A stretch of 35,450 nucleotides of DNA. It comes from Planctomycetota bacterium. Its GTDB lineage: Bacteria > Planctomycetota > B15-G4. Of the stretch, positions 7,252 to 29,377 are shown piece by piece; positions within the stretch are counted from its first letter, which is position 1, and the number at the start of each line of letters is the position of its first letter. Made by a program: the position numbers and the translations under genes. The stretch covers positions 1 through 35,450 of the forward strand of contig JAZALG010000105.1 in NCBI GenBank assembly GCA_036229545.1, written 5' to 3'. The notes beneath the pieces were generated by a model. The model was not told the DNA's origin. It did no database searches and saw nothing but the letters and a program-made list of their open reading frames with translations.

Positions 7252-7305
7252 CTCCCGGGGTTCATCGGCGACGGGTTGGCCGTTTCTCAGACGGCTAGGG
7301 GGATG

Positions 7306-8742: not shown

Positions 8743-9167
8743 GAGGTCTCTCCCACGATCTGGAGGAAGGCGGCCTTCGCCAGGGCCTGCAGGTTTTCAG
8801 GGCCGAGAAGTTTTTCGGCTTCTTCCTCTGTGGCCCAGCAGAAGGCGTCGTGCTCCTCGGAGAGAGCGGGGTCCCTCTCAGGCGCCGGGCCGAGGAAATA
8901 GGCGACCCGTTTTGGAATGGAATCTCCGATCTCGTCTCGGACGGAGTAGTGAAGCAGAGAGCGAAACATCGGGTTGAGTTTCACGTCTGTGTACCCTGTC
9001 TCCTCTTCAACCTCTCGGCGTGCTGTGGCGATCTCGTGGGCGTCAGCCGGATCACGTCGCCCCTTGGCAAAGCCCCAGTGTTTCCCTTGGGAATGACGGA
9101 GGAGAAGGAGGTGGGGAACTCCCTCAAGAAGACGAAAAAGGATGATGCCACTGGCGAGTAGGGTCAT
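8739..9167 (-). CDS. NUDIX hydrolase (Ap4A-hydrolase-like)
   Basis: Nudix box GFAKGRRDPADAHEIATARREVEEETG. I prefer ATG 9167 (MTLLASGIILFRL...) over GTG 9245, which would overlap the divergent pyrK-like gene. Confidence 0.85.
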   Translation of the reverse strand: MTLLASGIILFRLLEGVPHLLLLRHSQGKHWGFAKGRRDPADAHEIATARREVEEETGYTDVKLNPMFRSLLHYSVRDEIGDSIPKRVAYFLGPAPERDPALSEEHDAFCWATEEEAEKLLGPENLQALAKAAFLQIVGETS

Positions 9168-9224
9168 GAGGATGCCTGTACCGAGAGGATGGTCTGGGTC
9201 GGGGATGATAGGATCCCCAGCAAG

Positions 9225-10085
9225 ATGAGCGCTACCGTCCCGCACCCTGTTCCCCCATCCATGGCCTCCCGCTCAGGGAGGGTGGTCGCTAACGAAGTCG
9301 TCTCTGGGGGGGCACATCGGATTGAATTCGAAGTGGCAGGGGGGTGGCCGGCAACCAGAGCAGGGCAGTTCGTGATGTTGAGCCTTGATGACCCTGAGTT
9401 TCCCCTTCTCCCACGCCCTTTCAGCCTGTTGGGCTGCCAATCCGGGGATGAAGGGGAGGCCGACCATGTCGAGTTTCTCGTCATGCCTGTCGGCAAGGGG
9501 AGTGGCCTGATCTGTTCGGTGAAGGTGGGGGCCGAAGCCAATCTTGTGGGTCCTATGGGACATGCGGTGGAGGCGGATGTCCCCGAAGGGCCTCTGGTCT
9601 GTGTCGCGGGAGGATATGGGGTGGCACCCTTCATCTTTCTCTTGGAACAGTGGACCAGAGAGGGAAGAAAACAGGGAGAAGACGTCACTGTGGTTTTCGG
9701 AGCCCGGACAAAAGAGCGCCTGTCCCTGGCCGATCGATTGGAGGCTTCGGCGTCACGGGTGCTTCTGTGCACCGACGATGGATCGAAAGGGCTCGAGGGG
9801 AGGGTTGATGAGGCACTCACCAATCTCCTGCAGGAAGAATCCCCCACCATGATTCTAACCTGTGGTCCGGAGGCGATGATGGAGGCGGTTGGCAAGGTCG
9901 CGGTCAAAGCACAGGTGCCGGCCAGAGCCTCCCTGGAGACCGTGATGGGCTGCGGCTATGCCGTGTGCAATGGATGCGCGGTGGCCGTACACAGCGACCA
10001 GCACCCCGAGGGGTATACCTACGAGCTCGCTTGCAGGGAAGGCACGGTATTCGACGAAAGTCGACTTCTTTGGCATCCCCTCTAA
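9225..10085 (+). CDS. PyrK-like FAD/NAD(P)-binding oxidoreductase with a C-terminal 2Fe-2S cysteine cluster
   Basis: LLPRPFS (FAD site), CGPEAMM, and C-x-x-G-x-C-x-x-C...C in MGCGYAVCNGCAV...ACREG. Alternative starts are ATG 9189, 9225 and 9261. 9261 best matches typical PyrK length. Confidence 0.75.
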   Translation: MSATVPHPVPPSMASRSGRVVANEVVSGGAHRIEFEVAGGWPATRAGQFVMLSLDDPEFPLLPRPFSLLGCQSGDEGEADHVEFLVMPVGKGSGLICSVKVGAEANLVGPMGHAVEADVPEGPLVCVAGGYGVAPFIFLLEQWTREGRKQGEDVTVVFGARTKERLSLADRLEASASRVLLCTDDGSKGLEGRVDEALTNLLQEESPTMILTCGPEAMMEAVGKVAVKAQVPARASLETVMGCGYAVCNGCAVAVHSDQHPEGYTYELACREGTVFDESRLLWHPL

Positions 10086-15113: not shown

Positions 15114-16276
15114 TGGCCTCTTATCCCCTTTCCCTAACCGAAGAACAGGAGATGCTGCGGGACACCGTTAGGGCGTTTTCCGAAGACGTTCTTCTGCCCC
15201 AGGCGATTGAGATTGACCGGGAGCAGCGGTTCCCAGTCGAAACCTTCGCACAGATGGGAGAACTCGGCTTGCTTGGCCTGCCTGTTCCCGAGGAGTACGG
15301 GGGAGGGGGAGTTGATGCGGTATCCATCACGTTGGTCATTCAGGAGTTGGCCCGATGCTGTGGCTCGACGGCGTTGGGGCTCGCGGCGCACACGTCGCTT
15401 TGCATGTGGCCGATCTACCAGTTCGGTACCGAGGAACAACGGCAACGCTATTTGCCGGACCTCACCTCTGGAAAAAAACTGGGCGCCTTTGGTCTCACCG
15501 AACCCAACGCGGGGAGTGACGCAGGGGGCACCCTTACATCGGCTGTCAAAGATGGCGACGGCTGGCTGCTGAATGGCTCGAAGATCTTCATTACGAACGC
15601 GAATTACGCGGACGTCTTTGTTGTGACAGCGGTGACCGACAAGGAAAAGAAAACCCGGGGGGGCATCTCCTCGTTCATTGTGGAGCGGGGGTGGGATGGT
15701 TTCGAAGTGAACAAGGGCAGTGAGAAGCTCGGCATGCGGGGAAGCGATTGGGGCGAGTTATATTTTGCTGACTGTCGCCTGCCTAAAGAGAGCCTCCTCG
15801 GTGAAGAAGGGTTGGGCTTTGTGAATTTTATGGAGACTCTTGATGGCGGACGTATTGGAATCGGTGCTTTGGCTCTCGGGCTTGCCCTCGGTGCCTACGA
15901 GAGATCGCTGTCCTACTCCCAGGAACGAAAAGCCTTCGGAAAAGCACTTTCCGATAAGCAGGGAATCGCCTTCATGCTTGCCGACATGGCGACCCAAATC
16001 GAAGCGGCGCGGCACCTTATTCAACATGCGGCAAGGCTCAGAGATGAGGGCCAGCCGTTCACGACGGCGGCGGCCATGGCCAAACTTTTTGCTTCTGAGA
16101 TGGCGATGAAGGTGACCTTTGACGCGATCCAGATTCATGGAGGTTATGGATTTACGAACGAGTATCACGTGGAGCGCATGTACCGTGATGCGAAGTTGTG
16201 CACGATTGGAGAAGGTACGAGTGAAATTCAGCGGATGGTCATTGCACGGGACCGTCTCGACCAATCTCTTCGTTGA
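15113..16276 (+). CDS. Acyl-CoA dehydrogenase (second copy)
   Basis: FGLTEPNAGSDAG and YRDAKLCTIGEGTSEIQRMVIAR. ATG 15113 (track start TTG 15110). Confidence 0.9.
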   Translation: MASYPLSLTEEQEMLRDTVRAFSEDVLLPQAIEIDREQRFPVETFAQMGELGLLGLPVPEEYGGGGVDAVSITLVIQELARCCGSTALGLAAHTSLCMWPIYQFGTEEQRQRYLPDLTSGKKLGAFGLTEPNAGSDAGGTLTSAVKDGDGWLLNGSKIFITNANYADVFVVTAVTDKEKKTRGGISSFIVERGWDGFEVNKGSEKLGMRGSDWGELYFADCRLPKESLLGEEGLGFVNFMETLDGGRIGIGALALGLALGAYERSLSYSQERKAFGKALSDKQGIAFMLADMATQIEAARHLIQHAARLRDEGQPFTTAAAMAKLFASEMAMKVTFDAIQIHGGYGFTNEYHVERMYRDAKLCTIGEGTSEIQRMVIARDRLDQSLR

Positions 16277-16284
16277 GGATTGCC

Positions 16285-18489
16285 ATGTCAGCACAAGAGG
16301 ATGAACCCAAAGATTCCCTTTCACGTCTGGCTAGAGAGTCAGATGTTGAGTCCTTCGAGGCAGCGTGGCTTGAGGCCATTGATGGCAAAGAGCCGACCCC
16401 GGATCTTCTCGAGGCGTACCACGAACTTTCCGGAGAGAAGCGACACGTCGTGGGGCACTCTCTTCTCGAAGTATTGTTCGAGGCCTGCACCGAGCGGAAG
16501 GACGCAGAGGGAATCCTGGCGGTGGGGGCGGAGTTGCTGTCCTCAGCGAGCAGGGGAGATCTTGATCTGGAGCCGGCCCTTCGCGATGCCCTGGGAGAGC
16601 AGTTCGGGCAGGAAAGTTGGTATGCGAGTTTTTTGCGTCTTTCCGGATTGGAAGAAGAGTCGGCGCTTCAGGCGTCGCAGGGTGGGGGAATGCGTTCTTT
16701 TATAGAAGCTCTTGAGCAATTTGACGCGTTGAGGCGGTTTCTTCCTGGAAGCGTGGTCTACCACTCGAGTGGATGGAAAGAGGGCTTGGTGGTGGACTAT
16801 GACCCGACGTCTGAGCAGATCTCGATCCAGTTTCGCCAGGATGGCACCGTGCGGCAGATGCCCATTACGAGTGCCCTCGATGTTCTGACCACTCTCGCCG
16901 AAGATGATCTTCGCGCGCGCCTTCTCGTTGACGAGGAGGGGCTGAAAGAGGAAGCAGCCTCTTCTCCTAGTCTTCTTGTTCGTGCCGTCGCACGATTGCA
17001 TCGAGATCGAGCGACGGTCAAAGAGATGAAGTTGTGGCTTTATGGCACGGTAATCGAAGAGCGGTCTTGGAATAGTTGGTGGAAGAAGGCAAAGCAAGCA
17101 GGCCTCCAAGATCCATTTTTGGCGGTGGATAATCCAAGCCGCCCGGTTTTCGTACTCCGAAAGAAAGCTCTGACGGCAGAAGAAGAGATGGGTCTTGCCA
17201 TGGAGGGGGCGGCGAGTCTTGTCGAACTGCTGAAAGTGGTTGCAGGGCCCCTGTCTTTGGATCCCGAAGCGGACCTCAAAGGCAGGATCCTTTCAGCGGT
17301 GAAATCGGGGGTTGCTGATGAAGGAGAAACCTCAACAGAGAGGCTGGCAGGTGCCCTTCTCCTGCGGCGTCACGGGGAGTCGCAGGATGAGTTCATCGCA
17401 ACTCTGTTGGACGGGATGCTGGCTGAGGAGTCCGTCACGTTCGCGACGATTGTTTCCGCTCTGGGGAATCGAACGGAACGGCGAGACCTCTTTGAGGTTT
17501 ATGCGGCCGCCAAACCGGATCTTTGGAGTGATGGCATCATTGGCGAACTTGATGGACTGCCGACGGACCTTCTCGGTCTAGTCGCCGACCGCCTCACCCT
17601 GGAGGGAAGGGGCGCTGCCTTGGCGAATCGTTTCCGCATTTTTCTTCTGACTCCAAGCAGGTATGCAGACGCGGTTCTTGCCCTGTCTCGGCGTTTTGTC
17701 GCCGGGGACTTTTCTGAAATCGAAGGAGCCCCGGACTCCGTCAATGTGTGCCACGGGCTGCTGTGCATGGCAGAGACCCAGGCGCCTCGTGCGGAGCGGG
17801 GTGATAAAGAGGCAAAGGACGTCATGAAGGAGTTGGAGCGTCTCATCATCGAAAAGGGGCTCGCTTCTCAATTCGTGGAACAGGGATCGCAATCGGACCT
17901 AGAGTCGTCGCTTTCTGTGATGGCTCGCTGCGCTACGTTGCCGAGCGTCTTGGTGAACGCGGTTCGCGTTCCCATCGAGAAGAGGTGTCCAGACCTCATT
18001 CCTCGCAAGGAGATTCCCTTCTGGGAATCCGGCCCTCTGTTTACGAGCAAGGACGGAATGCTCCGTCGGCAAGAGGAGTACCGGGTGCTTCTTGAGGAGA
18101 AAATCCCAGAGAACAGCGCAGACATCGGTCGGGCTGCCTCCTACGGCGACCTGTCCGAGAATTTTGAGTGGACGGCTGCCATTGAACAGCAGAGGCAACT
18201 CACGGAGAAGGCCGCAGCCATGGAAGCTGAATTGAGGGTCGCCCAGTTGATCGAGGATCAGGAGTTAGTGGATGGCGTCGTGTCGCCGGGGATGGTTGTG
18301 ACCTACTCCACGGGGGGAGAAACCCACCAGATACGAATTTTTGGACCATGGGAGCGGGGGGAAGATGTCGTGAGTTATCAGGCTCCTTTGGCTGCTGGCA
18401 TGCTTGGAGGAAAGGAGGGTGATACTCTGGTCGTGGACCTTCCTTCGGGGTCGGTGGAGGTTACGGTGACGGCAGTGGTGCCGGCGTAG
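16285..18489 (+). CDS. Large GreA/GreB-family protein: roughly 580-aa unknown N-terminal region plus a complete C-terminal Gre module
   Basis: The last roughly 150 aa align by eye to GreA: ...IGRAASYGDLSENFEWTAAIEQQRQL... (acidic coiled-coil tip D-x-x-E retained), ...SPGMVVTY....IRIFGPWE....VSYQAPLAAGMLGGKEGD. ATG 16285 lies 9 nt after the upstream stop. Confidence 0.75.
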   Translation: MSAQEDEPKDSLSRLARESDVESFEAAWLEAIDGKEPTPDLLEAYHELSGEKRHVVGHSLLEVLFEACTERKDAEGILAVGAELLSSASRGDLDLEPALRDALGEQFGQESWYASFLRLSGLEEESALQASQGGGMRSFIEALEQFDALRRFLPGSVVYHSSGWKEGLVVDYDPTSEQISIQFRQDGTVRQMPITSALDVLTTLAEDDLRARLLVDEEGLKEEAASSPSLLVRAVARLHRDRATVKEMKLWLYGTVIEERSWNSWWKKAKQAGLQDPFLAVDNPSRPVFVLRKKALTAEEEMGLAMEGAASLVELLKVVAGPLSLDPEADLKGRILSAVKSGVADEGETSTERLAGALLLRRHGESQDEFIATLLDGMLAEESVTFATIVSALGNRTERRDLFEVYAAAKPDLWSDGIIGELDGLPTDLLGLVADRLTLEGRGAALANRFRIFLLTPSRYADAVLALSRRFVAGDFSEIEGAPDSVNVCHGLLCMAETQAPRAERGDKEAKDVMKELERLIIEKGLASQFVEQGSQSDLESSLSVMARCATLPSVLVNAVRVPIEKRCPDLIPRKEIPFWESGPLFTSKDGMLRRQEEYRVLLEEKIPENSADIGRAASYGDLSENFEWTAAIEQQRQLTEKAAAMEAELRVAQLIEDQELVDGVVSPGMVVTYSTGGETHQIRIFGPWERGEDVVSYQAPLAAGMLGGKEGDTLVVDLPSGSVEVTVTAVVPA

Positions 18490-18518: not shown

Positions 18519-20090
18519 GTGACTGTTTCTTCCGATGACGGTGACCACCTTGGACAAATCCCCTTAGGGGGGGATGAAGAGACTTCGCCACCGCGCTCTT
18601 CCGGTCCGTCGGACGAGGAGATTCGTGCTGCCGCCGCGATTGCTGGCGACTATCGCGCCTCGGTTCCTGGGACAGAGCCTGACCGTTCCCCCGCAGGGAA
18701 GGACGAGGGACGGGTGGCCGACCGCCCCTCAATGGATTTCTGGGAGGTTCTCTACGAACGGCGGACCACTCGGCGGTTTGACAAGAGTCGATCTGTCCCC
18801 CGGGACGTGGTCCTCGAACTTCTCGATGCTGCCGTCTTCTCTCCCACGAGTTGCAATCTCCAGATGTGGGACTTTCTCGTGGTGGACGACCCGGATCTGC
18901 GCGAGCAACTGGGACGGCTCTCTCTTCAAGTTCTCTCTACTCCCCTGACGATCTTTGTGACCTACGGCAAGGAATACAGTGAAGAGGGCTATGCCAACGT
19001 GCAGTCTGCCGCAGCGGCGATGATGAACATGTCCAATGCGGCGCACGTGCTGGGGATGGGAACCTTCTGGATCAACCAACTCGGCCCTCGGGATGAGGTG
19101 GGCCGTATTCTTGGGATTCCTTCTGATCGAGAGGTGATCTGCGCCTTGGCGGTGGGATGGCCTGAGGTTTATCCCACCAAAGCTCCGCGTCGCCGTCCCT
19201 TCGACCATGTCGTTCACTGGAATCGTTATGGAGGCGTGGCGATCCCAACCTCACCGTCTCCTCAGGATTGGTCCTTGGACCAAATCCGGGAATACCAGCA
19301 GGCCCGCGTCCTCAACGGAAACCGATACAACAAGACGCGCCCATGGGAAATGGCCGGCAACCTCACGGCCGGGGAGCGATTGAGTGCATTGGACGAGAAC
19401 GGATCTCCCGACGAGGGGAGTCCTCGGTGGCTCGATGTCCTCCCTGTGACGGGGTTGTTCACAGGGCCCTTGGCAAGGCAGCACCGAGGTCATCGGTGGA
19501 CCGTGCTTGAGTTGAGCGAAGACGTGGCGGCATTCGCCGCGAAGCGATGTCCGACCCAGGTGATGTGTGACACCCTTGTGTTTGACCCACAATCAGTCGA
19601 CGCGCTCCCCGAGGAGGTCTTCGACCGGATGACCCTCTTTCATCGCCTGGAGAGCCTGCCCGAGCAGACACGATCCCATCTCCTGGGCGCCCTCCATCGG
19701 ATGCTTGCTCCGGAGGGAAGATTTCTCCTGAAATATACGAGCCGTCGCAGTTTTCACGCGGTTGCCGCCTGGCTTCATCACCGACGAGGCGGCCCGGGGG
19801 GGGTTGAGTATGTGCTTTCGCCCGACCCCAATCTTGGCCCCTTCGAAGCCCTGTCCCCTTCCGAGGTCAAGGCGCTGGTGGAAGAGGCTGGATTCACCGT
19901 GGAGAGGTCCTTCGGAGACGCGAGGGGTCCGAGTCGCGAGGAGATGGAGTTCCGGACTCGGAATATGAGCCGATGGAAGAGTGGAATCGTGCGGATCGGA
20001 TTGGCCCTTTGGGGCGTCCTCCTGTGTTGCATCCCCGGAGCCTCACGATACTGGGCTCGAGACCGGGCTCTTTTGCTCCGGCGTGGCTGA
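18519..20090 (+). CDS. Nitroreductase-domain protein fused to a class I methyltransferase-like domain, with a C-terminal TM helix
   Basis: Nitroreductase N-terminus: FWEVLYERRTTRRFDKSRSVPRDVVLELLDAAVFSPTSCNLQMWDF. Methyltransferase-like part: WLDVLPVTGLFTG (degenerate glycine loop), VLELSEDV, LHRMLAPEGRFLLKY. TM segment: IVRIGLALWGVLLCCIPGA. The start is uncertain: GTG 18519 or ATG 18732. Confidence 0.7.
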   Translation: MTVSSDDGDHLGQIPLGGDEETSPPRSSGPSDEEIRAAAAIAGDYRASVPGTEPDRSPAGKDEGRVADRPSMDFWEVLYERRTTRRFDKSRSVPRDVVLELLDAAVFSPTSCNLQMWDFLVVDDPDLREQLGRLSLQVLSTPLTIFVTYGKEYSEEGYANVQSAAAAMMNMSNAAHVLGMGTFWINQLGPRDEVGRILGIPSDREVICALAVGWPEVYPTKAPRRRPFDHVVHWNRYGGVAIPTSPSPQDWSLDQIREYQQARVLNGNRYNKTRPWEMAGNLTAGERLSALDENGSPDEGSPRWLDVLPVTGLFTGPLARQHRGHRWTVLELSEDVAAFAAKRCPTQVMCDTLVFDPQSVDALPEEVFDRMTLFHRLESLPEQTRSHLLGALHRMLAPEGRFLLKYTSRRSFHAVAAWLHHRRGGPGGVEYVLSPDPNLGPFEALSPSEVKALVEEAGFTVERSFGDARGPSREEMEFRTRNMSRWKSGIVRIGLALWGVLLCCIPGASRYWARDRALLLRRG

Positions 20091-20111: not shown

Positions 20112-20963
20112 TTAGAAAGAGACGTCGAATTTCTTCATAAGGATGAACCCCACGGCCATCGAGACCACGAGAAACACGAGGATAATTCCCAGTTCACCGT
20201 CCGGCATCCATCCAAGGTCCCGTTCGGGATAGCCTCGAGAAAGAGATGCCGTAGAGAGTGCGGCACTAAAGATCGGTCCGCTGCTGGCGAGGGGGGCCTC
20301 GCCCGGGTAGAGGATGGCCTCCCAACTCTTGGTTCGGACCACAGGTACTTTTCGAGGCCCTCCACCGACGGCCCATCCCTTTTCGACGAGACTGCCGTTT
20401 ACGTTGATTTTCAAAAGATAGTCGCCGGGCTGGTCTGCCCGCAGTCTCCATGCCACCTCCCCGTCTGGAGTGGGGACTGGCCCGGCTTCGATCGTGACGC
20501 CTTCTGGCGTCTCGAGGGTGACTTCGGTTGCCGGTCGGTCGGTCATGGCACGGTCAAGTTGGACGGTCAGAATTGTAGAAACACCGGGGGGGCTGGGATC
20601 AAAGGCATAACGGGCCTCGAGTTGAGCCAGGAGGGCGATCATGGGCAGGATCATGACGGCCATGGGGAGGAGGTTGTTGGCGAGGTAGAGGGTGTTCTTC
20701 CAGAAGATCATCATCGTGGCGCCCATGACAGTCCGAATGTCGTCGCTGAAGAGTCGGATTTCATAGAGATGCACCTTGATCTGATTTTTTGTTCGGGCGA
20801 TCGCGGCCTGATTGCTGCAGTACTTGAAGCAGACCATGGCCACTAGGCCGAAGAGAGCCGACCAGAACAGGAGGGAAATCCAGACATGCCAGTTCAGTCC
20901 GCCCCCGAAGGGAGCAAGGAGCAGGTCGAAGATTGCCGTCGAGAGGTTGTTAAATGTCGCCAT
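20112..20963 (-). CDS. Membrane protein of unknown function (N-terminal TM helices, roughly 135-aa beta-rich loop, C-terminal TM helix)
   Basis: Hydrophobic segments WISLLFWSALFGLVAMVCF, LLPMAVMILPMIALLAQL and LGIILVFLVVSMAVGFILM. It is the last gene of the sat/cysC/NPP operon. Confidence 0.65.
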   Translation of the reverse strand: MATFNNLSTAIFDLLLAPFGGGLNWHVWISLLFWSALFGLVAMVCFKYCSNQAAIARTKNQIKVHLYEIRLFSDDIRTVMGATMMIFWKNTLYLANNLLPMAVMILPMIALLAQLEARYAFDPSPPGVSTILTVQLDRAMTDRPATEVTLETPEGVTIEAGPVPTPDGEVAWRLRADQPGDYLLKINVNGSLVEKGWAVGGGPRKVPVVRTKSWEAILYPGEAPLASSGPIFSAALSTASLSRGYPERDLGWMPDGELGIILVFLVVSMAVGFILMKKFDVSF

Positions 20964-21004
20964 GATTTACAGCCGCCCAAAAGGGTGCCGATCAAGGGAA
21001 GGGG

Positions 21005-21199
21005 TCAGCTGATGTAGCCGAGTCCTCGGAGTTTGTTCTTAATGTCCTCGTCGCTTTCGCTGCCTTCAAAATGCGCGAGTTCCTTCTCAAGAATGTGTGT
21101 GATGAACTCTTCGACGGTGGCATAGCCAGCGGTGTCGGAAACTTTCTTCAAACGAGTGACGAGGTCCTGGTCAAGCCTGACCTTGGTAGCGCCGAACAT
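21005..21199 (-). CDS. Ribbon-helix-helix (CopG/Arc/MetJ-like) protein, 64 aa, with a C-terminal ...IKNKLRGLGYIS tail
   Basis: Beta strand TKVRLDQD, helix LVTRLKKVSDTAG, G-Y-x-T turn, helix VEEFITHILEKEL. An AGGAGA Shine-Dalgarno (SD) sequence lies 7 nt upstream of the ATG. Paralogue of 28380..28622. Confidence 0.75.
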   Translation of the reverse strand: MFGATKVRLDQDLVTRLKKVSDTAGYATVEEFITHILEKELAHFEGSESDEDIKNKLRGLGYIS

Positions 21200-21264
21200 G
21201 TTGATTCTCCTAAAGGGTGTTGGGGATATGAAACGGTGTCATGAGGTTATCGGATGGGAGCGGC

Positions 21265-23277
21265 TCATTTCGAAAGGGGGATGGCTTTGCCGACCATTCC
21301 CTCCCCCTGGCCGAGCCCGTAAAGGTCCAGCAGCGTTGCTGTGAGGTCTGTGAGGTCAAAATCCGACCCGGTGATCTTACGATTGACGAGAAGGATCCCC
21401 GGCACGACGTCAGGGGCCATGAGGTGATTCCCTGACCACCTTGAGGTGTTGTCTTCGATGACCACTCCAGGGACGCCTCCGAGAGTCGAGAGGTCTGAAC
21501 AGCCGTATCCCGCGTCATAGCCGATGACAAGATCAGGAGATTCGCTTAGGCGCAGTCCGGAGTAGACCTCGTCTCGGGTCCAGGCCTGTTGAATGGCAGG
21601 AGCGTTGTGCTTCGGGTCTTGGTAGGACGTCAGTTTGCTGGCGATTTCTGCGAGGAGCGATGGAGATTGTTCGGGGGAGACAATCCCTTCGGATTCCCGG
21701 CCTCTTTGGTTCAGGTAAAGGCCGTTAAATCCCAGGGCATAGGCTCTGGTCTTCGACCAGTCGGTGTCGGTCAGGATGCTCCCCTCCGTTTTCCCGTCCC
21801 GGAGGACTAGATACCCCTCTTCGACCAGCCATGCGTTGAGATGAAAAGCCCTGCGATAGGGCTGGAATCCGTGATCGCTCATCACAATAAGGAGAGTATC
21901 GCTGGGGAGTTGATTCCTCACTGCACCGAGGACGGCATCAACCTCTTCATAGAAGTGCTGGATGTCGTCCCGATGGTGAAGTGCTGTTGCGGGTTCGTGG
22001 GCGGGATGTGGCGGTGCGGAGGAGTCCTTGGGATCACCATGTCTCCAGAGCATGTGGCACTGGAGGTCGATCTCGGAGAGGTAGAAGAAGGTGGCGTCGC
22101 CTCTTTCAAATCGATCAAGGGCGAGGTCGAGCATCTCTCGCCCGTCTTCGTGGACGAGGGCGACCTGGGCCAGATAGTCGTTGTCATCGAAGAGCCCGTC
22201 TTTAAGGGCGTTGGTTTCTTCCGGCATGCCCTGGGTATAGAAGTGCCCGATCTCTCCATGAAGGTCCTCGGCCCAGGTCTCAGGAGTTGTGATCAATTGG
22301 GCGGGGGCGGATGGGGCGATATTGACTGGTGAGGCGTAGAGGCGGAAGGTCGGCCTGACCTCTTTCATGTAAAAGCGGACCGTTCCGCTCAGAGGCATGA
22401 GGCCTCCCGGGGCCGCGTCAAAAACCACCTCAAGCCAGTCGCTCCATTCCCCCTCCTTGAGGATGGCTTGAGCGTCTCCACACCGGAGCCAGACTTCCTC
22501 CTTTTCTGGAGCGAGGTGAACTGTCAGGGGGACGGTGAGGTGGGGGGTCTTGCTCGGGAGGTTCTCGGGGTCGATCGCCAGAATATCCGGTGGGCCCTTG
22601 AGAACGTCGGTCACTGTGTCAGGGACCCCGTCTAAATCGGTGTCGTCGACGGTGATGAGAGCGAGGTCGGCTTTGATCTCGCGGGTATCGAGGATCGGTT
22701 CATTGGTCCACCAGGAGTAGGTGCCGAAGTCGCCCCGCATGTCCACCGTCCCCATGCCTGAGAGGGTGTAGGCGTCGGAGGGGGTGGGAGGGTAGTTCCC
22801 GGGCATGCGGTAGACTTCCGTCTCCACCCCGGCTTCGGTGAGGTAATCCCACCAGGGCGTTCCCGAACGGTTGTTTTCGGGCTCCTCTCCTCCGAGAGGG
22901 ATGTGATAGCCGAAGAAATTCAGAGCCCCTGGTGGCTCCTCTTTCATCGCCCGGGTTGCGGAAGAGATGGGTTGATAGCTGTGGGGGTCTCGATGGATAA
23001 AGTCGAAGACACCGTGTCCTCCGGGATTCATCCCGGTGACAAAGTTCGACCAGGCGACGGGGCTTTGTGGGGGGTTGGAGGTTCCTAAGGGTTGGAAACT
23101 TCCCTCGGTGACGAGGCGAGAGAAATGGGGCATACGTTCCTCGTCCATGAGGCGTTGCAGGATGACGGGGTCCATCCCGTCAATGCCGAGGACAAAGACC
23201 CCAGAGGGGCCGGCGTCTTCTTCGGCGGCGACAAAAGTGGTGAGGGCCCAAGCCAAGAGGAGGGGAATCAGTTTCAT
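21265..23277 (-). CDS. Secreted type I phosphodiesterase/nucleotide pyrophosphatase (NPP, alkaline-phosphatase superfamily) protein, 670 aa
   Basis: Signal peptide MKLIPLLLAWALTTFVAAEE, metal site LGIDGMDP, nucleophile region SPVAWSNFVTGMNPGGHG, VMSDHGF, WSGNH. Confidence 0.82.
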   Translation of the reverse strand: MKLIPLLLAWALTTFVAAEEDAGPSGVFVLGIDGMDPVILQRLMDEERMPHFSRLVTEGSFQPLGTSNPPQSPVAWSNFVTGMNPGGHGVFDFIHRDPHSYQPISSATRAMKEEPPGALNFFGYHIPLGGEEPENNRSGTPWWDYLTEAGVETEVYRMPGNYPPTPSDAYTLSGMGTVDMRGDFGTYSWWTNEPILDTREIKADLALITVDDTDLDGVPDTVTDVLKGPPDILAIDPENLPSKTPHLTVPLTVHLAPEKEEVWLRCGDAQAILKEGEWSDWLEVVFDAAPGGLMPLSGTVRFYMKEVRPTFRLYASPVNIAPSAPAQLITTPETWAEDLHGEIGHFYTQGMPEETNALKDGLFDDNDYLAQVALVHEDGREMLDLALDRFERGDATFFYLSEIDLQCHMLWRHGDPKDSSAPPHPAHEPATALHHRDDIQHFYEEVDAVLGAVRNQLPSDTLLIVMSDHGFQPYRRAFHLNAWLVEEGYLVLRDGKTEGSILTDTDWSKTRAYALGFNGLYLNQRGRESEGIVSPEQSPSLLAEIASKLTSYQDPKHNAPAIQQAWTRDEVYSGLRLSESPDLVIGYDAGYGCSDLSTLGGVPGVVIEDNTSRWSGNHLMAPDVVPGILLVNRKITGSDFDLTDLTATLLDLYGLGQGEGMVGKAIPLSK

Positions 23278-25490
23278 GATTTTTTCCCCTTGTTGGCGGA
23301 GGACACCAGGGCTTCGGGCGCGGCGCCAGATTGACTCAGAATCGCAGGGTCAAAATTGCCACGGACGAGATCCTCTCCACCATTTTCGGAGAAGAAGGAG
23401 GCGCCCTGCATGTATTTGGGGATGTCCTGTCCGAAGGTGTGCAGGACGGAGGGAGCCATGTCGACCAGGCTGGGAGTTTCTCGGGCGATTGGACGGTTGC
23501 AGAGGAGGACTCCGGGAACGATGCGCGGATCCACGCAGTGATCTCCGCTCCAACTTCGAGTGTTGTCTGTGAAGGTGTCCTCTGTCACCGATCCGGTGGC
23601 ACATTCCCAACTGTTGCGATACCCACCGTCGTATCCGATGAGGAGGTCTGGCGCGTCGTACTTATAGGGACCGGTGAAGAAGTCTTCGGCGGCGAAGACA
23701 TCCAAGACGGCCTCCTGCCCTGTGGCCGGGTCTTTCATCTTTTTCAGTCCAACGATGAGTTCCTCCTTGAGGGCGTTGTACTCGTCGCCTTCGGTCACGA
23801 TCCCTGAGACTTCTCGACCCTTGCGGTTGATGAAAATGCCCGTGAGTCCGAGGCTGAAAGCCCTGGTCTTGGACCAGTCCACGTCTTCGAACCAATCGCC
23901 GGACGTGGTCTTTCCATCCTTCAAGACGAGGTAGCCCTCGTCCCTCAGCCACGCATTGAGATTTACGCCACGTCGAAAGTTGGTGAAGCCATGGTCGGAG
24001 ATGATCATGAAGAGGGTATGAGGGTCTTCGACCACGTCATCCCAGATCTCGCCCAGCAGTCCATCCATCCGCTCGTAAACCTGTGGGATCGCGTCCTTCC
24101 ACTCTTCGGTGTCCTTGCCTTCGTTCGCGGGGTGGGTGGGATCGAGATACCGGTAGAACATGTGCTGGACACGGTCCGTGGTGTCGAAGACACAGGTCAC
24201 CAGGCCCTTGCGTGTTTTGGAGAGGGCGTCTTTGAACATGGCGACCCGCTCGTCAGCGATGAGCATGGCTTGCTCAAAGAAGGCTTTTTCATCAATCACA
24301 CGCTCATTGAGAGCCCAGGTGTCTTCTGCCAGTCCTAGGGTGGCGAATTTCCCCAACTTCTTTGCCAGATAGACCGAATAGGCCGTGGGATGGCTGATGG
24401 GCATCGCGGGGTTTTCGGGATCGATGTGAATCGGCGTCATGTAGACGGAAACTTCGGGCTCAAGGGAGGTGATATAGAAGCGAGCGATGCCCCGCACCTT
24501 GATGCCGAGTCCGGCTTTGAAGGTGAGATCAATCCAATCGGAGTATTCGCCCACTTCCAGGGTGAAGGGGTCGGCACCCTCAATCGCGAAATGGGCCGAA
24601 GAACTGGTCTCGTTCACAGTGAGGGTGAAAGGAATCGTGAGGGAGGTTCCGTCGCTCACCAGGGAGTTTTGAGGGCCCATGATCCGGGAGCGGATGACGT
24701 TTCCCTGTCGGCGGAGGACGGTCTGTTCTCCCCCTGTGAAGGCCGCTTCGCCTCCCTCTCCTTGTCGGGTGCTGAAGAAGCCAAAGGTGCCCTGACTTCC
24801 CCTCAGGTCAGGGACGCACATTCCCGAGAGGAGGAGGCCTTTGAACTTGACGGGGGGGAAGGTGATCGGCACACGCTGAATGGTGGAGAAGATGTTCTTT
24901 GCCCCGAGAAGTTTCCAGAAGGCCTGACTCTTCTGGAGGAGCTTGATGGTGGGCTTTTCTAGAGGGATGACGTATTTGCCGATATTCAGAACTTTCTTTG
25001 CATTGCCAATGTCGGTCGACGAGAGCATGGGCATGTAGGTGCAGGGGTCTCGCGTTAGAAAGTCGTAGATGCTGTGACGGGAGGGATCCACTCCGGTACT
25101 GAAGGAGGACCACGCCACAGGCGACATCGAGGGGTAACTCGTCGCAAGAGGTCGGAAGACACCCCGCTCGGCCAAGCGTTGAAAATTCGGGAGCCGGCCT
25201 TCTTGCATGAACTTTTGAACGAGGCCGGGGTCGAGGCCGTCCAGGCCTAGGATGACGACCTTTTTGGCGCGGGCGTTTTTGTAGGGGTTCCCTGTGATGA
25301 TCAGTCGCCAGAGGAGTCGGAGAGGCCACAGGAGAATGGTCCCGAAGGCCAGGAAGACTGTGCTGACGAGGACGAGAGCTGATCCGGCGAAGGCGAAGCC
25401 TGCGCCTGGCCCGATGTAGGCGTGTGCGTCTGGTCCTGAGAAGAGGACCCAGGTCAAGAGCAGCGCGGTGATTCGGATCGAGCGAGTCAT
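23274..25490 (-). CDS. Membrane-anchored NPP/alkaline-phosphatase-superfamily protein, 738 aa (paralogue of the downstream gene)
   Basis: Two N-terminal hydrophobic segments including AYIGPGAGFAFAGSALVLVSTVFLAF, then LGLDGLDP, SPVAWSSFSTGVDPSRHS, IISDHGF, WSGDH. Its stop overlaps the next gene's start by 4 nt. Confidence 0.82.
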   Translation of the reverse strand: MTRSIRITALLLTWVLFSGPDAHAYIGPGAGFAFAGSALVLVSTVFLAFGTILLWPLRLLWRLIITGNPYKNARAKKVVILGLDGLDPGLVQKFMQEGRLPNFQRLAERGVFRPLATSYPSMSPVAWSSFSTGVDPSRHSIYDFLTRDPCTYMPMLSSTDIGNAKKVLNIGKYVIPLEKPTIKLLQKSQAFWKLLGAKNIFSTIQRVPITFPPVKFKGLLLSGMCVPDLRGSQGTFGFFSTRQGEGGEAAFTGGEQTVLRRQGNVIRSRIMGPQNSLVSDGTSLTIPFTLTVNETSSSAHFAIEGADPFTLEVGEYSDWIDLTFKAGLGIKVRGIARFYITSLEPEVSVYMTPIHIDPENPAMPISHPTAYSVYLAKKLGKFATLGLAEDTWALNERVIDEKAFFEQAMLIADERVAMFKDALSKTRKGLVTCVFDTTDRVQHMFYRYLDPTHPANEGKDTEEWKDAIPQVYERMDGLLGEIWDDVVEDPHTLFMIISDHGFTNFRRGVNLNAWLRDEGYLVLKDGKTTSGDWFEDVDWSKTRAFSLGLTGIFINRKGREVSGIVTEGDEYNALKEELIVGLKKMKDPATGQEAVLDVFAAEDFFTGPYKYDAPDLLIGYDGGYRNSWECATGSVTEDTFTDNTRSWSGDHCVDPRIVPGVLLCNRPIARETPSLVDMAPSVLHTFGQDIPKYMQGASFFSENGGEDLVRGNFDPAILSQSGAAPEALVSSANKGKKS

Positions 25491-25516
25491 GGCAGGGACG
25501 CTGTGAGAGAAGGTGT

Positions 25517-26128
25517 TTAGACGAAATTCCGAGCCTTAAGCCTCTCTAGGATCATCACTTCTTGCTCCGGTTCAATATCTGGTCCTCCCGCAGGTGGGAT
25601 CCAGCCTTTGATTTCCAAGAAACGGATGATCGTGTCGACACTCTCTTCGATTGATTCTGTCTCAGAGTTGACGTGGACTTCGGGGTTTTCAGGCGCCTCA
25701 TAGGGATCATCAACCCCCGTGAACCCTTTGATTTCTCCCGCGAGCGCTTTTTTGTACAGGCCTTTGACGTCTCGTTCGGTGAGGACATCGAGGGAGCACT
25801 CGGTGTAAACCTCCACGAAGTTGTCGTTGTGAAGGTGGCGGATTTCGTCGCGAATGTCCTGGTAGGGAGAAATGGCGGCCGCGATGCACACGGTGTTGTT
25901 GCGCGCGAGAAGGTTGGCCACGAAACCGATGCGTCGGATATTGATGTCTCGATCTTCTTTGCTGAAACCCAGGCCCTTGCTGAGGTTGGTGCGGACGACA
26001 TCTCCGTCAAGCATTTCAACGCCGAGTCCACGCCGAAGCAATACGCGTTCAATCTTCTTGGCGAGGGTGGTTTTGCCCGAGCCAGAGAGGCCGGTGAACC
26101 AAAGGGTGAATCCTTTTTGAGAGGTCAT
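25517..26128 (-). CDS. cysC: Adenylyl-sulfate (APS) kinase with a roughly 25-aa C-terminal extension
   Basis: [19 protein letters not shown]-loop, [29 protein letters not shown] prefer ATG 26128 (MTSQKGF...) over the track start at 26245. The tail is [26 protein letters not shown]. Confidence 0.92.
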
Positions 26129-26183
26129 GATGGACGTCCTTATTTTATGGGGAGGGGAAGGAAGAGGGAGGGAGCAGAGATCT

Positions 26184-27149
26184 CTAGCGGATCTTGCCTT
26201 CCATGAAGGGCACCTCCATGACCTTGTCATGGAGGATGGGGCCATGTCCGAAGTAGCCTTTCTCGCCGAAGAGTTCGCCGTGATCGGCTGTCACGGTGAT
26301 GTAGGTGTTCTCCGGAACGAGGTCATACAACTTGGGAAACACTTCTTCGTCTAGGTAGCGCACGGTGTGAATCTGCATTTCACGAAGCCGGTCGAGTTTT
26401 TCCTGGTCGAAGAACTTGGGAGCGTCTTTGTCCTTGATGAGTTTTCCCCCTTTGAGGCTTTTATCGAGGTGCTTGAAGACGCCGTGGACGCCACTAATCC
26501 GGGGCCATTCACTGGGGTCCTGGTCGGGCGTGACAAAGGGGTAATGGGTTTCGCCGACATTCAGCATGTAGAAGGAAGGACGGTCGTCGTCGAATGTCAG
26601 CGTGTCCAGGATGGCCGCCATGTCGTTGTGCTTGTCCATGAGTTGGAAGGAGTCAAATCCTCGGTTGACCCCTGTCGTGCTGTTGAGGACGGGGAGGGAC
26701 ACCCTCGCATGGGTTTTGTACCCGAGTTCTTCTCGCAGGAAGTCCGGGAGCCACATGGCAGGGACGAGTTTTGCGAAATCCATCCCTTCCATGCCGAAAC
26801 GTTCGTTGTAGTTCAGGAAATCTTCTTTGTAGTACTCCGAGGCGAAGACGTTGTCAGGGCTTTCGTGGGGGAGGAGTCCCGTCAGGAGGTTGTAATGGCT
26901 CGGCGCGGTCCAGGTGGCGTAGCTGTAACGCTTCTGGACCTTTCCGCCGCTGAGTTTGGGGATGTTCTTGGGCTTTGCGGCCATGAACGAGTCGTATCGA
27001 CATGAATCGAGGGTGATGACGATGTAGTTGTTCTTTGCCTTCGGTTCGGGGCGGGAGACTTCGACTGCTGCTGTGCTCGGCGCTGTCGGCGCGGCGACGT
27101 TGCGAGGTGGTGGCCGGAAGTTCTTCAGGATGCTGTCTAAAAGGGCCAT
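26184..27149 (-). CDS. Short cytosolic NPP/sulfatase-like alkaline-phosphatase-superfamily protein, 321 aa
   Basis: [13 protein letters not shown] (metal Asp), [17 protein letters not shown] (resembles the NPP Thr-nucleophile motif TFPNHYxxxTG), [18 protein letters not shown]. It has no signal peptide and no sulfatase C/S-x-P-x-R motif. Confidence 0.75.
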
Positions 27150-27185
27150 GTCAGTCGTCCTTCCAGTGGAGAGAGAGAACCGTGT

Positions 27186-28340
27186 CTAAACCGCTGTTTT
27201 GTCCGCCATCGCGTCGATGAGAATGTCTGCCACCTCGGGGCGAGTGAACTCCTCTGGCGGGCGTTCTCCTTTTTGGAGCATGTCCCGCAGGGCTGTGCCG
27301 GACAGGAAGATCTTGTCGCTGCCTTCTGTCGCGGCCGCTGTCTTGTCGCTCGCCATGGCACCTGCCTTGAGATCCCAGAAGGCGTGTTCAAAGTTCATGA
27401 TCGAGATCCCGATTTCCTCTGGAGAGAAGTCATTGAAGATCTCTTGTGCGTCGTAGGTTCCGTAGTAGTCGCCCACGCCCGCGTGATCGCGACCGACGAT
27501 GATGTGGGTGCAGCCGTAGTTCTTTCGGATCAGGGCGTGAAAAATTGCTTCGCGGGGCCCTGCGTACCGCATGGCTTGAGGGTAGACGGCGAGGACGACC
27601 CGATCCTTGGGGTAGTACTTGTCGAGAAGGGCGGTGTAACAATCCATGCGGACTGACGCGGGGATGTCGTCGCTCTTGGTTTCACCCACGAGAGGGTGGA
27701 TGAGAAGGCCGTCCACGAGTTCGAGGGCGCACTTGGTCAGATACTCGTGGGCCCGGTGGATGGGATTGCGAGTTTGGAAGGCCACGACGGTCTCCCATCC
27801 CTTGGCCTTGAACAGAACGCGCGTTTCTTGTGGCGTGAGACGTTGGTCATTGGCGAAGTCATATTCGGGCATGTTGAGAATCCAAATCGGCCCGGCGAGG
27901 TACTCGTCGCCAATGGAGTTGAGGTACTGAACCCCAGGATGCGCTTCGTCGGTTGTCCCGAGGCAGCGGCGGGCTTCCTCCTGTTTGTCAAAACTGTATT
28001 TTTCTTGGAGGTGGAGGAGCCCGATGAGGTTGTCCTTCTCATCGGTCAGGGCGATGTCTGTTCCGACGGAACAGTCGAGCCCCTTGTTGCTCAGGGTGAC
28101 GGGGAGAGGCCAGACGACTCCGCTGGCAAGACGAGTGCTTTTGATCACCGATCCGAGGTCGTAACTTCCCATGAAGCCGTCGAGGGGGCTCATGGCGCCT
28201 GTGCCGATCATTTCAAGATCACTGAGTTCTCGAGCATTGAGAGGGAGTCTGGGGGCTGACTCTACTTTTGCGATGAGTGCATCGCGCTCGTCGCCGGTCG
28301 CGATGCGGTTTACCAGTCGTCCACCATGTGCAGGAATCAT
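27186..28340 (-). CDS. sat: Sulfate adenylyltransferase (ATP sulfurylase, homo-oligomeric type)
   Basis: FQTRNPIHRAHEYL and IVGRDHAGVGDYYG signatures. 384 aa. Confidence 0.93.
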   Translation of the reverse strand: MIPAHGGRLVNRIATGDERDALIAKVESAPRLPLNARELSDLEMIGTGAMSPLDGFMGSYDLGSVIKSTRLASGVVWPLPVTLSNKGLDCSVGTDIALTDEKDNLIGLLHLQEKYSFDKQEEARRCLGTTDEAHPGVQYLNSIGDEYLAGPIWILNMPEYDFANDQRLTPQETRVLFKAKGWETVVAFQTRNPIHRAHEYLTKCALELVDGLLIHPLVGETKSDDIPASVRMDCYTALLDKYYPKDRVVLAVYPQAMRYAGPREAIFHALIRKNYGCTHIIVGRDHAGVGDYYGTYDAQEIFNDFSPEEIGISIMNFEHAFWDLKAGAMASDKTAAATEGSDKIFLSGTALRDMLQKGERPPEEFTRPEVADILIDAMADKTAV

Positions 28341-28379
28341 GACTTCTCCGAATGATTGAATAGAGAGGGGTGTGGAGGG

Positions 28380-28622
28380 TTACTTCAGGTATCCCAGGCC
28401 GTCGAGCTTCCGCTTGATCTCGGACAACTCTTCTTTTGTGACAGCGGAGGTTGCTCCCTGGTCTGGGTCTTCCTTCCCAAGGGGGCGATCTCCGACGAGG
28501 TCTCTGAGGACAAAGACGATGAAGTCGGTAGGAGAGGTGAACCCTGAGTCATCGATAACCTGCTGAATCCTCTCGTAGAGGGGGCGAGGAATCTTCAAGG
28601 TGACCTTCTTATGCCGTGTCAT
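28380..28622 (-). CDS. Ribbon-helix-helix protein, 80 aa, with a C-terminal ...IKRKLDGLGYLK tail. First gene of the sat operon.
   Basis: Beta strand KKVTLKIP, helix LYERIQQVIDDSG, G-F-x-S turn, helix PTDFIVFVLRDL. An AAGGA SD lies 8 nt upstream of the ATG. Confidence 0.75.
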   Translation of the reverse strand: MTRHKKVTLKIPRPLYERIQQVIDDSGFTSPTDFIVFVLRDLVGDRPLGKEDPDQGATSAVTKEELSEIKRKLDGLGYLK

Positions 28623-28704
28623 GTGTTGTTCCTTTGAGCGCCCAACAGAGGGGAAGAATGTCCCGTTTCTTGGTGGGCTGTTAGTAGCATGTATACCTAA
28701 AGTT

Positions 28705-28729
28705 ACTCCTATAGCACTCCAATAGGAGT
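28705..28729. promoter_or_regulatory. Candidate operator in the divergent RHH-sat / lipoprotein control region
   Basis: Inverted repeat ACTCCTAT (28705-28712), 9-nt spacer, ATAGGAGT (28722-28729). It also reads as a tandem 11-mer, ACTCCTATAGC / ACTCCAATAGG. RHH proteins typically bind such repeats. By rough odds, about 0.1 such 8-bp inverted repeats are expected by chance in this spacer. Confidence 0.3.
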
Positions 28730-28876
28730 GTGTTTAGAGCGCAGTAGCATACAGCCGTGTTTTCTTACCGCAAGCCAGGATTGAGAAGAAGAGATGGAAT
28801 TCGGCGTTTTTTTCTCTAAATCGGGTAAAAAGGGGCACCGGAATTGGATCAAACCCAGAAAAAAGAGGACAGAAGC

Positions 28877-29377
28877 ATGACATCACGATCGTTGATGACC
28901 CTTTTCTTTTCGTGCGTCGCCCTCTTTTCCTGCGGCGAACCAGGCTTGAATGAGATCAAAGAGGGGGTCAAAACGTCGCTGAGTACGAGTTCTTTCGCCC
29001 AAGCTCGTGCTGATTGTGAGTCTGTCTTGACTCACAATAAAGCTGCGATGAGCAGGGCGGACCGGTGGGCGTTTGAAGACCTTCGGCTGCAGGCCGTTGC
29101 TCGATCAGGCGATGGAGCGGAGTCTGTTGCAACGCTTGGTCGGTTAGCGGGGGAATACGCGAGCCAAATCACGCCGGCCTACTACGTGAAGATCACGAGC
29201 TATGTTCGGGATGGAGGAGACCTTTTGGGCGCAGTCGACCTCCTCGCCGCGGGCGCAGAGCGATTTCCTGCGGACAAAAGCAAGTTCGATGCGCTCGCCG
29301 AGGCCCTCAAAGAAGCCGCCTCAAGTGCTGGCGACAGTGAAGCTCTCGAGAAACTCAAATCTCTGGGCTACGTTTGA
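28877..29377 (+). CDS. Helical (TPR-like) lipoprotein, 166 aa, ending ...ALEKLKSLGYV
   Basis: Signal/lipobox MTSRSLMTLFFSCVALFSC|GEP. A GAGGA SD lies 7 nt upstream of ATG 28877 (track start TTG 28844). It is transcribed divergently from the RHH-sat operon. Confidence 0.7.
   Translation: MTSRSLMTLFFSCVALFSCGEPGLNEIKEGVKTSLSTSSFAQARADCESVLTHNKAAMSRADRWAFEDLRLQAVARSGDGAESVATLGRLAGEYASQITPAYYVKITSYVRDGGDLLGAVDLLAAGAERFPADKSKFDALAEALKEAASSAGDSEALEKLKSLGYV

Follow-up and report, generated by a model that had tools for sequence, protein, structure and literature searches.

A widespread gene cassette with paired AlkP-fold enzymes, joined to sulfate-activation genes in Planctomycetota

We analysed a 35,450-nucleotide (nt) stretch of DNA from a Planctomycetota bacterium (GTDB lineage B15-G4; GenBank assembly GCA_036229545.1, contig JAZALG010000105.1, positions 1 to 35,450 of the forward strand), hereafter the window, and found that eight genes on its minus strand, from 28622 to 20112, form a real operon that is one copy of a widespread cassette. 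The core of the cassette consists of AP738 and AP670, two paralogous members of family PF01663 that are apparently active enzymes of the alkaline phosphatase (AlkP) or nucleotide pyrophosphatase/phosphodiesterase (NPP) fold, followed by sm64, which encodes a small ribbon–helix–helix (RHH)-like protein, and mem283, which encodes a membrane protein. Upstream of the core, the window carries a second RHH-like gene (RHH80), the sulfate-activation genes sat and cysC and, between these two, the enzyme gene AP321. We propose, with a probability of about 0.4, that the cassette encodes a machine fed by 3′-phosphoadenosine 5′-phosphosulfate (PAPS) that attaches an anionic ester to a component of the envelope or turns such an ester over, and that it does not serve plain sulfate assimilation.

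A scan of one genome per species returned at least 543 AP738-type loci, of which we fetched 80 and searched their six-frame open reading frames (ORFs) with the proteins of the window. Among the 60 loci with at least 4.2 kb of sequence downstream of AP738, AP670, sm64 and mem283 follow AP738 in the same order and on the same strand in 58, and, of the two exceptions, one is an ORF-caller artefact. The four-gene core spans Planctomycetota, Myxococcota, Binatia, Dadabacteria and Thermodesulfobacteriota, and dozens of species share its order, which places the arrangement far outside what chance would give. A first-pass annotation of the window had read the eight genes as one unit rather than plain assimilation and had called for a survey of related neighbourhoods; the survey found the gene order conserved, which bears that reading out. 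The same annotation did not recognise the arrangement as a described system. We found no description of it in Pfam, NCBIfam or PADLOC, nor in the literature searched on COG3379, on PAPS genes with sulfatase-like genes and on bacterial tyrosine sulfation with RHH proteins. PADLOC gave no matches, and there is therefore no sign of a defence system.

Within the window, the eight co-directional ORFs and the spacers of −4 to 65 nt reported earlier are as described. From the upstream end they are RHH80 (28380–28622), sat (27186–28340), AP321 (26184–27149), cysC (25517–26128), AP738 (23274–25490), AP670 (21265–23277), sm64 (21005–21199) and mem283 (20112–20963), with successive gaps of 39, 36, 55, 26, −4, 65 and 41 nt when cysC is counted from 26128. 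The start of AP670 overlaps the stop of AP738 by 4 nt. The cysC ORF itself covers 25517–26245; the start shared with its homologues is the methionine at 26128, giving a protein of 203 amino acids (aa), as in locus L001. A divergent lipoprotein gene on the plus strand, up177 (28844–29377), is the ninth gene of the unit, and an operator-like site between up177 and RHH80 (28704–28730, minus strand) also belongs to it. The genes that flank the operon are housekeeping genes.

What accompanies the core differs between lineages. Variant A, found in Planctomycetota and including the window, has the divergent lipoprotein gene and then RHH80, sat, AP321, cysC and the core. All nine genes are also present in L001, L007–L010, L062, L080, L086 and L087, and L070, L072 and L075 have the same eight genes with up177 either undetected or lost to a contig cut just upstream. 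Variant B, in Myxococcota, Binatia and ‘delta’ lineages, has the divergent lipoprotein gene, the core and then ST207, which encodes a 205-aa PAPS-type sulfotransferase. Variant C, in Dadabacteria and Thermodesulfobacteriota, begins with a cytoplasmic PF01663 protein and one or two sulfatase-fold proteins with a membrane domain, followed by the core. AP321 and the core alone make up variant D, and a further form consists of nothing more than the core. AP321 lies between sat and cysC in every variant-A locus, whereas L005 and L006 have no sat or cysC there and AP321 immediately precedes AP738. When all flanking ORFs were clustered, no further accessory gene proved broadly conserved beyond lineage synteny. 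Two lineage-restricted neighbours were recorded. A gene for a 648-aa subtilase (Peptidase_S8) lies directly upstream of the cassette at eight loci among L059–L074 in Dadabacteria and Thermodesulfobacteriota (for example, L068 4339–6285), a position that may reflect lineage synteny only. In L087 (10958–13819), a cardiolipin-synthase-like phospholipase D (PLD) gene (PLDc_N and two PLDc_2 domains) and an amidohydrolase gene sit between cysC and AP738, a single-case hint of phospholipid head-group chemistry.

The accessory genes tie the cassette to sulfation by two independent routes. Among 39 fully flanked loci, ST207 is present in 20, the set of RHH80, sat, AP321 and cysC in 6 and neither in 13, and the routes never meet: ST207 does not co-occur with sat, cysC or the short AP321 at any locus. 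ST207 matches PF00685 and PF13469, carries the PAPS motifs PRSGTS and RRD and has no signal peptide. Since in other phyla the core is joined directly to this sulfotransferase (20 of the 39 fully flanked loci), it is linked to sulfation independently of the sulfate-activation genes. We conclude that sat and cysC are a lineage-specific add-on and not the heart of the system. The earlier picture of a module that makes and processes a sulfonucleotide, or a sulfated or phosphodiester-linked envelope product, is thus retained in part: the link to sulfation recurs, but the PAPS genes belong to one lineage form and 13 of the 39 loci have no sulfation gene.

The identities assigned to the sulfate-activation genes from their motifs are secure. 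Sat is a homo-oligomeric-type sulfate adenylyltransferase, which makes adenosine 5′-phosphosulfate (APS) from ATP and sulfate; it matches PF01747 (E = 2.5e-95) and PUA_2 (E = 5.5e-45), exceeds the cut-offs of NF003166 (507 bits; cut-off 387) and TIGR00339 (416 bits; cut-off 323) and contains QTRNPIHRAHE and GRDHAGVG. CysC is the adenylyl-sulfate kinase that converts APS to PAPS, with matches to PF01583 (E = 3.3e-64) and NF002059 (265 bits; cut-off 244) and with GLSGSGKTT and LDGD. The first-pass annotation had found no reductase or permease in the operon, and in keeping with this a scan of the larger ORFs of the 35-kb window detected no APS/PAPS reductase (cysH), sulfite reductase or sulfate permease. 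Reduction or permease genes were also absent from those related loci for which a gene list or scan was made. The locus falls outside the definition of an assimilatory sulfate reduction operon.

AP321 encodes a small AlkP-superfamily enzyme (321 aa) of the sulfatase/LtaS type. Its only above-threshold match is to Sulfatase PF00884 (39.7 bits; cut-off 25); PF01663 reaches 17.4 bits, under its cut-off of 23, and there is a partial match to the STM4013 family. The predicted active-site motifs are YATWTAPSH, with a threonine nucleophile, and DHGE...GHG. The formylglycine motif C/S-x-P-x-R is absent at the nucleophile position, which reads W-T-A-P-S-H-Y, and because of this and of the threonine nucleophile, as in LtaS and EptA, we do not file AP321 as a sulfatase. 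Where three NPP-type enzymes had been counted in the operon, the assignment stands for AP738 and AP670 and has to be given up for the short gene, whose product resembles sulfatases and LtaS. Lacking a hydrophobic segment and a signal peptide, AP321 is predicted to be cytoplasmic. A paralogue with 69% identity lies off-cassette in L085 (9001–10965), beside cobW (COG0523), ZnuABC-like and ZIP genes.

AP738 and AP670 are 34% identical over their full length (E = 5e-125) and match PF01663 with 109.6 and 130.5 bits, respectively (cut-off 23). AP738 is conserved across phyla, with homologues 67–78% identical in metagenome-assembled genomes (MAGs) labelled Planctomycetota, Binatia, Myxococcota and Thermodesulfobacteriota. 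Aligned to the Xanthomonas NPP, its ligands for two metals are D84, D439-x3-H443, D499-H500 and H651, and all of these as well as S123 are invariant in 14 sequences; the equivalent catalytic motifs of AP670 are conserved in 54 sequences. The nucleophile of both is a serine in an S-P-V-A-W motif, not the threonine of NPPs. As metal ligands and nucleophile are kept, we take both to be active enzymes. Sequence similarity between the two enzymes and solved NPPs is marginal (E about 1e-4). Four cysteines (C150, C225, C630 and C652) are invariant in AP738 orthologues and absent from AP670; C652 directly follows the ligand H651, and the four may form an extra metal or redox site.

Sequence-based prediction puts the two paralogues on opposite sides of the inner membrane. 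AP738 begins with a signal-peptide-like segment ending in AHA, followed by an invariant YIGPGAGFAFAGS, a transmembrane (TM) helix and a basic stretch. This layout recurs in the family: 61 of 74 homologues have a signal-like segment ending in A-x-A, directly followed by the invariant motif YIGPGAGFAF.GS, a hydrophobic run of about 30 residues and a basic stretch. On the basis of the positive-inside rule, the catalytic domain of AP738 is predicted to be cytoplasmic and membrane-anchored. AP670 has a signal peptide, in many lineages a lipoprotein signal (59 of 65 homologues), and is predicted to be periplasmic. These N-terminal comparisons agree with the cytosolic, membrane-anchored and signal-peptide-bearing forms that had been distinguished among the three enzymes of the operon.

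The last gene of the core is always mem283, which encodes a three-TM protein. Profile searches of Pfam and NCBIfam returned no family match. An AlphaFold2 model (predicted local distance difference test score (pLDDT) of 92.3) starts with an amphipathic helix at the N terminus; a conserved cytoplasmic helix separates TM1 from a long TM2, and a periplasmic β-sandwich lies between TM2 and the C-terminal TM3. Foldseek matched this model only to generic immunoglobulin (Ig) or filamin repeats (E ≥ 0.008), with no match for the membrane part, and the periplasmic domain is predicted to be an Ig-like β-sandwich. The family is large: at 50% identity we counted 2,648 clusters at E ≤ 1e-3, 1,847 at E ≤ 1e-10 and 777 at E ≤ 1e-30. 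Nearly all members of the E ≤ 1e-3 clusters are about 275 aa long, and members named by JGI or NCBI are always called ‘hypothetical protein’.

Proteins of the system share a short C-terminal tail, L-x-x-L-G-Y-[ILV] (the LGY tail). In the window, sm64 (64 aa) ends in ...KLRGLGYIS, RHH80 (80 aa) in ...RKLDGLGYLK and the lipoprotein up177 in ...EKLKSLGYV. The pattern L-x-x-[LIVMA]-G-Y-[LIVM] occurs three times in the 413 reading frames of the window, each time at one of these C termini, where 0.007 such matches are expected. Across 8,706 ORFs from 84 loci it has 162 matches, of which 146 lie within five residues of the C terminus and almost all of these belong to proteins of the system. The tail is present in 70 of 71 sm64 proteins, in 53 of 55 lipoproteins and in all ten RHH80 proteins. 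It is also found on the variant-C proteins with TM and sulfatase-fold domains, on one such protein in a planctomycete locus, on an extra PF01663 protein and on one AP670. We conclude that at least four types of otherwise unrelated protein in the system bear the tail, the tyrosine and glycine of which are invariant in about 146 tails. The first-pass annotation had noticed tailed RHH genes, and the tails are there; it missed that the tail is system-wide and is also carried by periplasmic proteins.

Homologues of the lipoprotein up177, whose own lipobox is LFSC, occupy the same divergent position in 55 loci, have a lipobox in nearly every locus and end in L-x-x-[LA]-G-Y-[LIV] in 53 of the 55. The window copy has no Pfam match and relatives match TPR_14 faintly, which points to a helical, faintly tetratricopeptide-like lipoprotein. 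Because the lipoprotein and sulfatase-domain tails are predicted to be periplasmic, and sm64 and RHH80 have no signal peptide, the tail is predicted to occur on either side of the membrane. Most simply, it would be a docking peptide read by a universal part of the core, which could be the AP738/AP670 pair or mem283. Both paralogues contain an invariant internal segment that resembles the tail, N-x-W-L-x-x-x-G-Y-L, at about residues 510–523 of AP738 and 479–492 of AP670, and in the AP670 of L002 it reads MLESLGYL; the tail may mimic this element. A 1,292-aa protein (P0051) is an apparent AP738–AP670 fusion, the AP670 part of which ends in a tail (...LEALGYVAGSK). We dropped it as evidence on topology, as its junction reads like a frameshifted translation and the fusion is probably an assembly or frameshift artefact.

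The two small tailed proteins differ in their distribution. As a follower of AP670 in 58 of the 60 loci, sm64 is a universal core component; RHH80 is confined to loci that also carry sat, AP321 and cysC. They are homologous (25% identity, E = 3e-7), and each combines an RHH-like part with an acidic linker and the tail. The top PDB match of their joint profile is the RHH domain of NikR, a weak match (E = 0.036), as is that of the small RHH-like proteins to NikR in NCBIfam (E = 0.0067). PF01402 is found in 8 of 26 members, at a best E of 0.0016 and under the gathering score. The operator-like site reads CACTCC-TATT-GGAGTG-CTATA-GGAGTA and lies 82 nt upstream of the RHH80 start codon; it combines an inverted repeat with a direct repeat of the half-site at 11-bp spacing. 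It is the sole alignable block in the intergenic regions upstream of RHH80 in seven variant-A loci, and CACTCC-N4-GGAGTG-N5-GGAGT[GA] is present there in about 11–12 of 13 variant-A loci. Variant-B intergenic regions lack the element and yielded no operator for sm64, only a promoter-like block in four close relatives. Scans for promoter and terminator consensus sequences gave nothing above shuffled expectation, and an Rfam scan had no match in or adjoining the operon. An 11-bp half-site spacing fits an RHH operator, which supports RHH80 as a DNA-binding regulator; it is probably the operator-binding regulator of the planctomycete operon form. To the two RHH proteins claimed earlier, the conserved operator-like site thus gives indirect backing, but the RHH profile matches themselves stay below threshold.

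How the parts might work together can be outlined as follows. Sat and CysC would make a dedicated cytoplasmic PAPS pool, as do NodPQ or RaxPQ. At the inner face of the membrane, AP321 here, ST207 in other phyla or the PF01663 protein in Dadabacteria would act with AP738 to start an anionic ester modification of a lipid, or of an envelope precursor linked to a lipid; a sulfate ester or a phospho-sulfate-linked group is the likeliest form of this modification. The membrane protein mem283 would couple the two faces, and periplasmic AP670 would complete the modification, transfer it or trim it, with help from the tailed lipoprotein and, elsewhere, from tailed LtaS/EptA-like transferases. The LGY tail would dock these accessory proteins onto the core on both sides of the membrane, and through docking of the two RHH proteins the transcription of the operon would be tied to the machine's state. 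A dedicated PAPS supply agrees with the general rule that additional PAPS genes within a cluster indicate a sulfated product (PMC11641403).

Several observations weigh against this proposal. Thirteen of the 39 fully flanked loci have no sulfation gene, so the machine may handle several chemistries, of which sulfate is only one, or its tie to sulfation may be indirect. The operon in the window has no sulfotransferase of its own, and no glycosyltransferases or lipid synthases that could build an acceptor are conserved in the cluster. The surroundings of the AP321 paralogue in L085 look like a zinc-limitation context. The topology, the docking of tails and regulation by sequestration are predicted from sequence, the structure model of AP738 is weak (pLDDT 61, from a 14-sequence alignment) and the carriers are all uncultured MAGs. 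With the AP738 model, Foldseek returned only generic PafA, NPP and ENPP matches, which say nothing on specificity. The sulfotransferase 13 kb away in the window (6205–7251), to which the first-pass annotation had pointed, lies within 10 kb of the cassette in none of 84 related loci. This 348-aa protein (PF13469/PF00685) is encoded on the minus strand next to a 478-aa protein without Pfam match and a NUDIX hydrolase (6205–9245).

A more specific scheme is a new kind of trans-membrane ester relay, in which AP738, supplied by Sat, CysC and AP321 or by a sulfotransferase, loads activated sulfate or phospho-sulfate onto a membrane carrier, mem283 passes the carrier across, AP670 unloads it onto targets in the envelope and the LGY tail, as a new docking code, holds the machine together at both membrane faces and tethers the RHH regulators. 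We regard this as unlikely; if it were true, sulfation would be possible outside the cytoplasm, where no PAPS exists. Also unlikely is that the AlkP-fold enzymes hydrolyse APS, PAPS or 3′-phosphoadenosine 5′-phosphate (PAP) in a CysQ-like or NPP-like manner and so set the pool of activated sulfate, with the RHH proteins regulating the unit. NPP-fold enzymes cleave nucleotide pyrophosphate and phosphosulfate bonds, a chemistry that suits such turnover, as do the position of AP321 exactly between sat and cysC throughout variant A and the predicted cytoplasmic placement of AP738, where these nucleotides are. However, most lineages have the core without sat or cysC, AP670 and several tailed partners are predicted to reside in the periplasm, where there is no PAPS, and nucleotide turnover would need neither an Ig-like membrane protein nor a lipoprotein.

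We are more doubtful that ordinary assimilation genes are simply co-transcribed with AlkP enzymes that scavenge phosphate or remodel phospholipids, for example in a low-phosphate response. The PF01663 and sulfatase-fold families do include secreted phosphatases and phosphodiesterases (PafA, NPP), the cardiolipin-synthase-like gene of L087 lies within an operon of this type, and Sat and CysC could feed a PAPS reductase encoded elsewhere in the genome. Scavenging enzymes evolve fast, whereas AP738 keeps 67–78% identity across phyla and is predicted to be cytoplasmic; no pst or pho genes are conserved nearby; a sulfotransferase takes the place of sat and cysC in other phyla; and the RHH-type regulator comes with an operator-like site of its own and not a Pho box. 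Least probable is that the tail tyrosine is itself the substrate, receiving sulfate from PAPS through ST207 or AP321 or being esterified in some other way, with the AlkP enzymes writing and erasing the mark: the residue is invariant, AlkP-fold enzymes can cleave aryl sulfates and tyrosine–nucleotide esters, and an ST207 profile matched only TPST2 and TPST1 among solved structures at E < 0.05 (E = 0.005–0.03), but that match spans just the 26-aa PAPS loop, tails persist in variant-C loci without a sulfation gene, the neighbouring residues are basic or hydrophobic and not acidic as at known tyrosine-sulfation sites, and several tails are predicted to be periplasmic, while ST207 has no signal peptide.

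Three further features of the window lie outside the cassette. A c-di-GMP-I riboswitch aptamer (RF01051; 56.6 bits, E = 1.2e-8) at 2657–2744 on the minus strand is directly upstream of a sigma-70-family gene (ORF 1733–2716; regions 2, 3 and 4) and overlaps its called start. At 16273–18489 on the plus strand, an unusually long Gre-like protein (738 aa) has its GreA/GreB N- and C-terminal domains only in residues 592–735, and the preceding region of about 590 aa has no Pfam match. The gene at 18519–20090 (plus strand) encodes a 523-aa fusion of a nitroreductase and a class-I S-adenosylmethionine-dependent methyltransferase, and converges on the end of the operon.

If the link to sulfation holds, the cassette would mark a sulfated or otherwise esterified envelope component in abundant uncultured lineages, namely Planctomycetota, Myxococcota, Binatia and Dadabacteria. 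The cassette raises the questions of why paralogous AlkP-fold enzymes should be placed on opposite faces of a membrane and of what reads the LGY tail. It also defines, in mem283, a membrane-protein family of about 2,600 clusters that has no Pfam or NCBIfam model, and it offers RHH80 and the operator-like site as a candidate regulator–operator pair open to simple binding assays.

The closest precedents for the planctomycete form are NodPQ–NodH of rhizobia, RaxPQ–RaxST of Xanthomonas and the capsule loci with cysDNC, which likewise place PAPS-activation genes in a specialised cluster without reduction genes; copies of cysDNC occur in sulfated-capsule loci (PMC11641403). As in NodPQ–NodH and RaxPQ–RaxST, a PAPS-type sulfotransferase is held in the cluster, here in sister lineages of the cassette. 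The operon in the window, in contrast, has neither a sulfotransferase nor acceptor-building genes and uses Sat instead of CysDN, and none of these systems is known to have the constant part of the cassette, that is, the two AlkP-fold enzymes, the RHH protein and the novel membrane protein. As PAPS genes and a sulfotransferase never occur together in these loci, the cassette is not of the NodPQH type. Haloferax Agl7, which acts in the sulfation of a dolichol-linked hexose, was considered as a precedent and dropped because its family is not given in the literature that we followed.

The enzymes themselves resemble two groups. LtaS, EptA/MCR-1 and OpgB share the sulfatase/AlkP fold, with its threonine or serine nucleophile and metal site, and work at the membrane surface, where they transfer anionic head groups to molecules of the envelope. 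Their architecture, a polytopic TM region joined to a sulfatase domain, recurs in variant-C and some planctomycete loci, with seven TM helices in AP685. The cassette core differs from them in being of PF01663 type with a large inserted domain and in having one enzyme that is predicted to be cytoplasmic. AP321 lacks the N-terminal membrane domain that AP685, AP631 and the protein in L081 have, and to our knowledge no LGY tail occurs in LtaS, EptA or OpgB. Xanthomonas NPP, ENPP1–7 and PafA are the best sequence and fold matches of AP738 and AP670 and have metal ligands in common with them. Unlike these, AP738 and AP670 have a serine nucleophile and about 300 extra residues that include a β-rich insert, and whereas NPPs are typically secreted, AP738 is predicted to be cytoplasmic and membrane-anchored and the genes of the pair are obligately joined in one operon to sm64 and mem283.

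The small proteins and the tail have partial counterparts as well. NikR, PutA and RHH antitoxins such as ParD or RelB bind a partner or ligand through a C-terminal extension; this follows a small N-terminal β-α-α DNA-binding module, a layout that is also predicted for sm64 and RHH80, and a palindromic and direct-repeat operator-like site with 11-bp spacing lies upstream of RHH80’s own operon, as is the case for these regulators. In sm64 and RHH80, for which DNA binding is predicted, the extension is instead a short tail that periplasmic lipoproteins and enzymes also carry, and so is not a domain peculiar to regulators. Encapsulin cargo-loading peptides provide a parallel for one short C-terminal motif on unrelated co-encoded proteins, but the cassette has no shell protein, its motif sequence is different and the tail is predicted on both sides of the membrane. 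Conservatively, we describe the cassette as a cluster of enzymes from known superfamilies that is linked to sulfation and proposed to modify the envelope.

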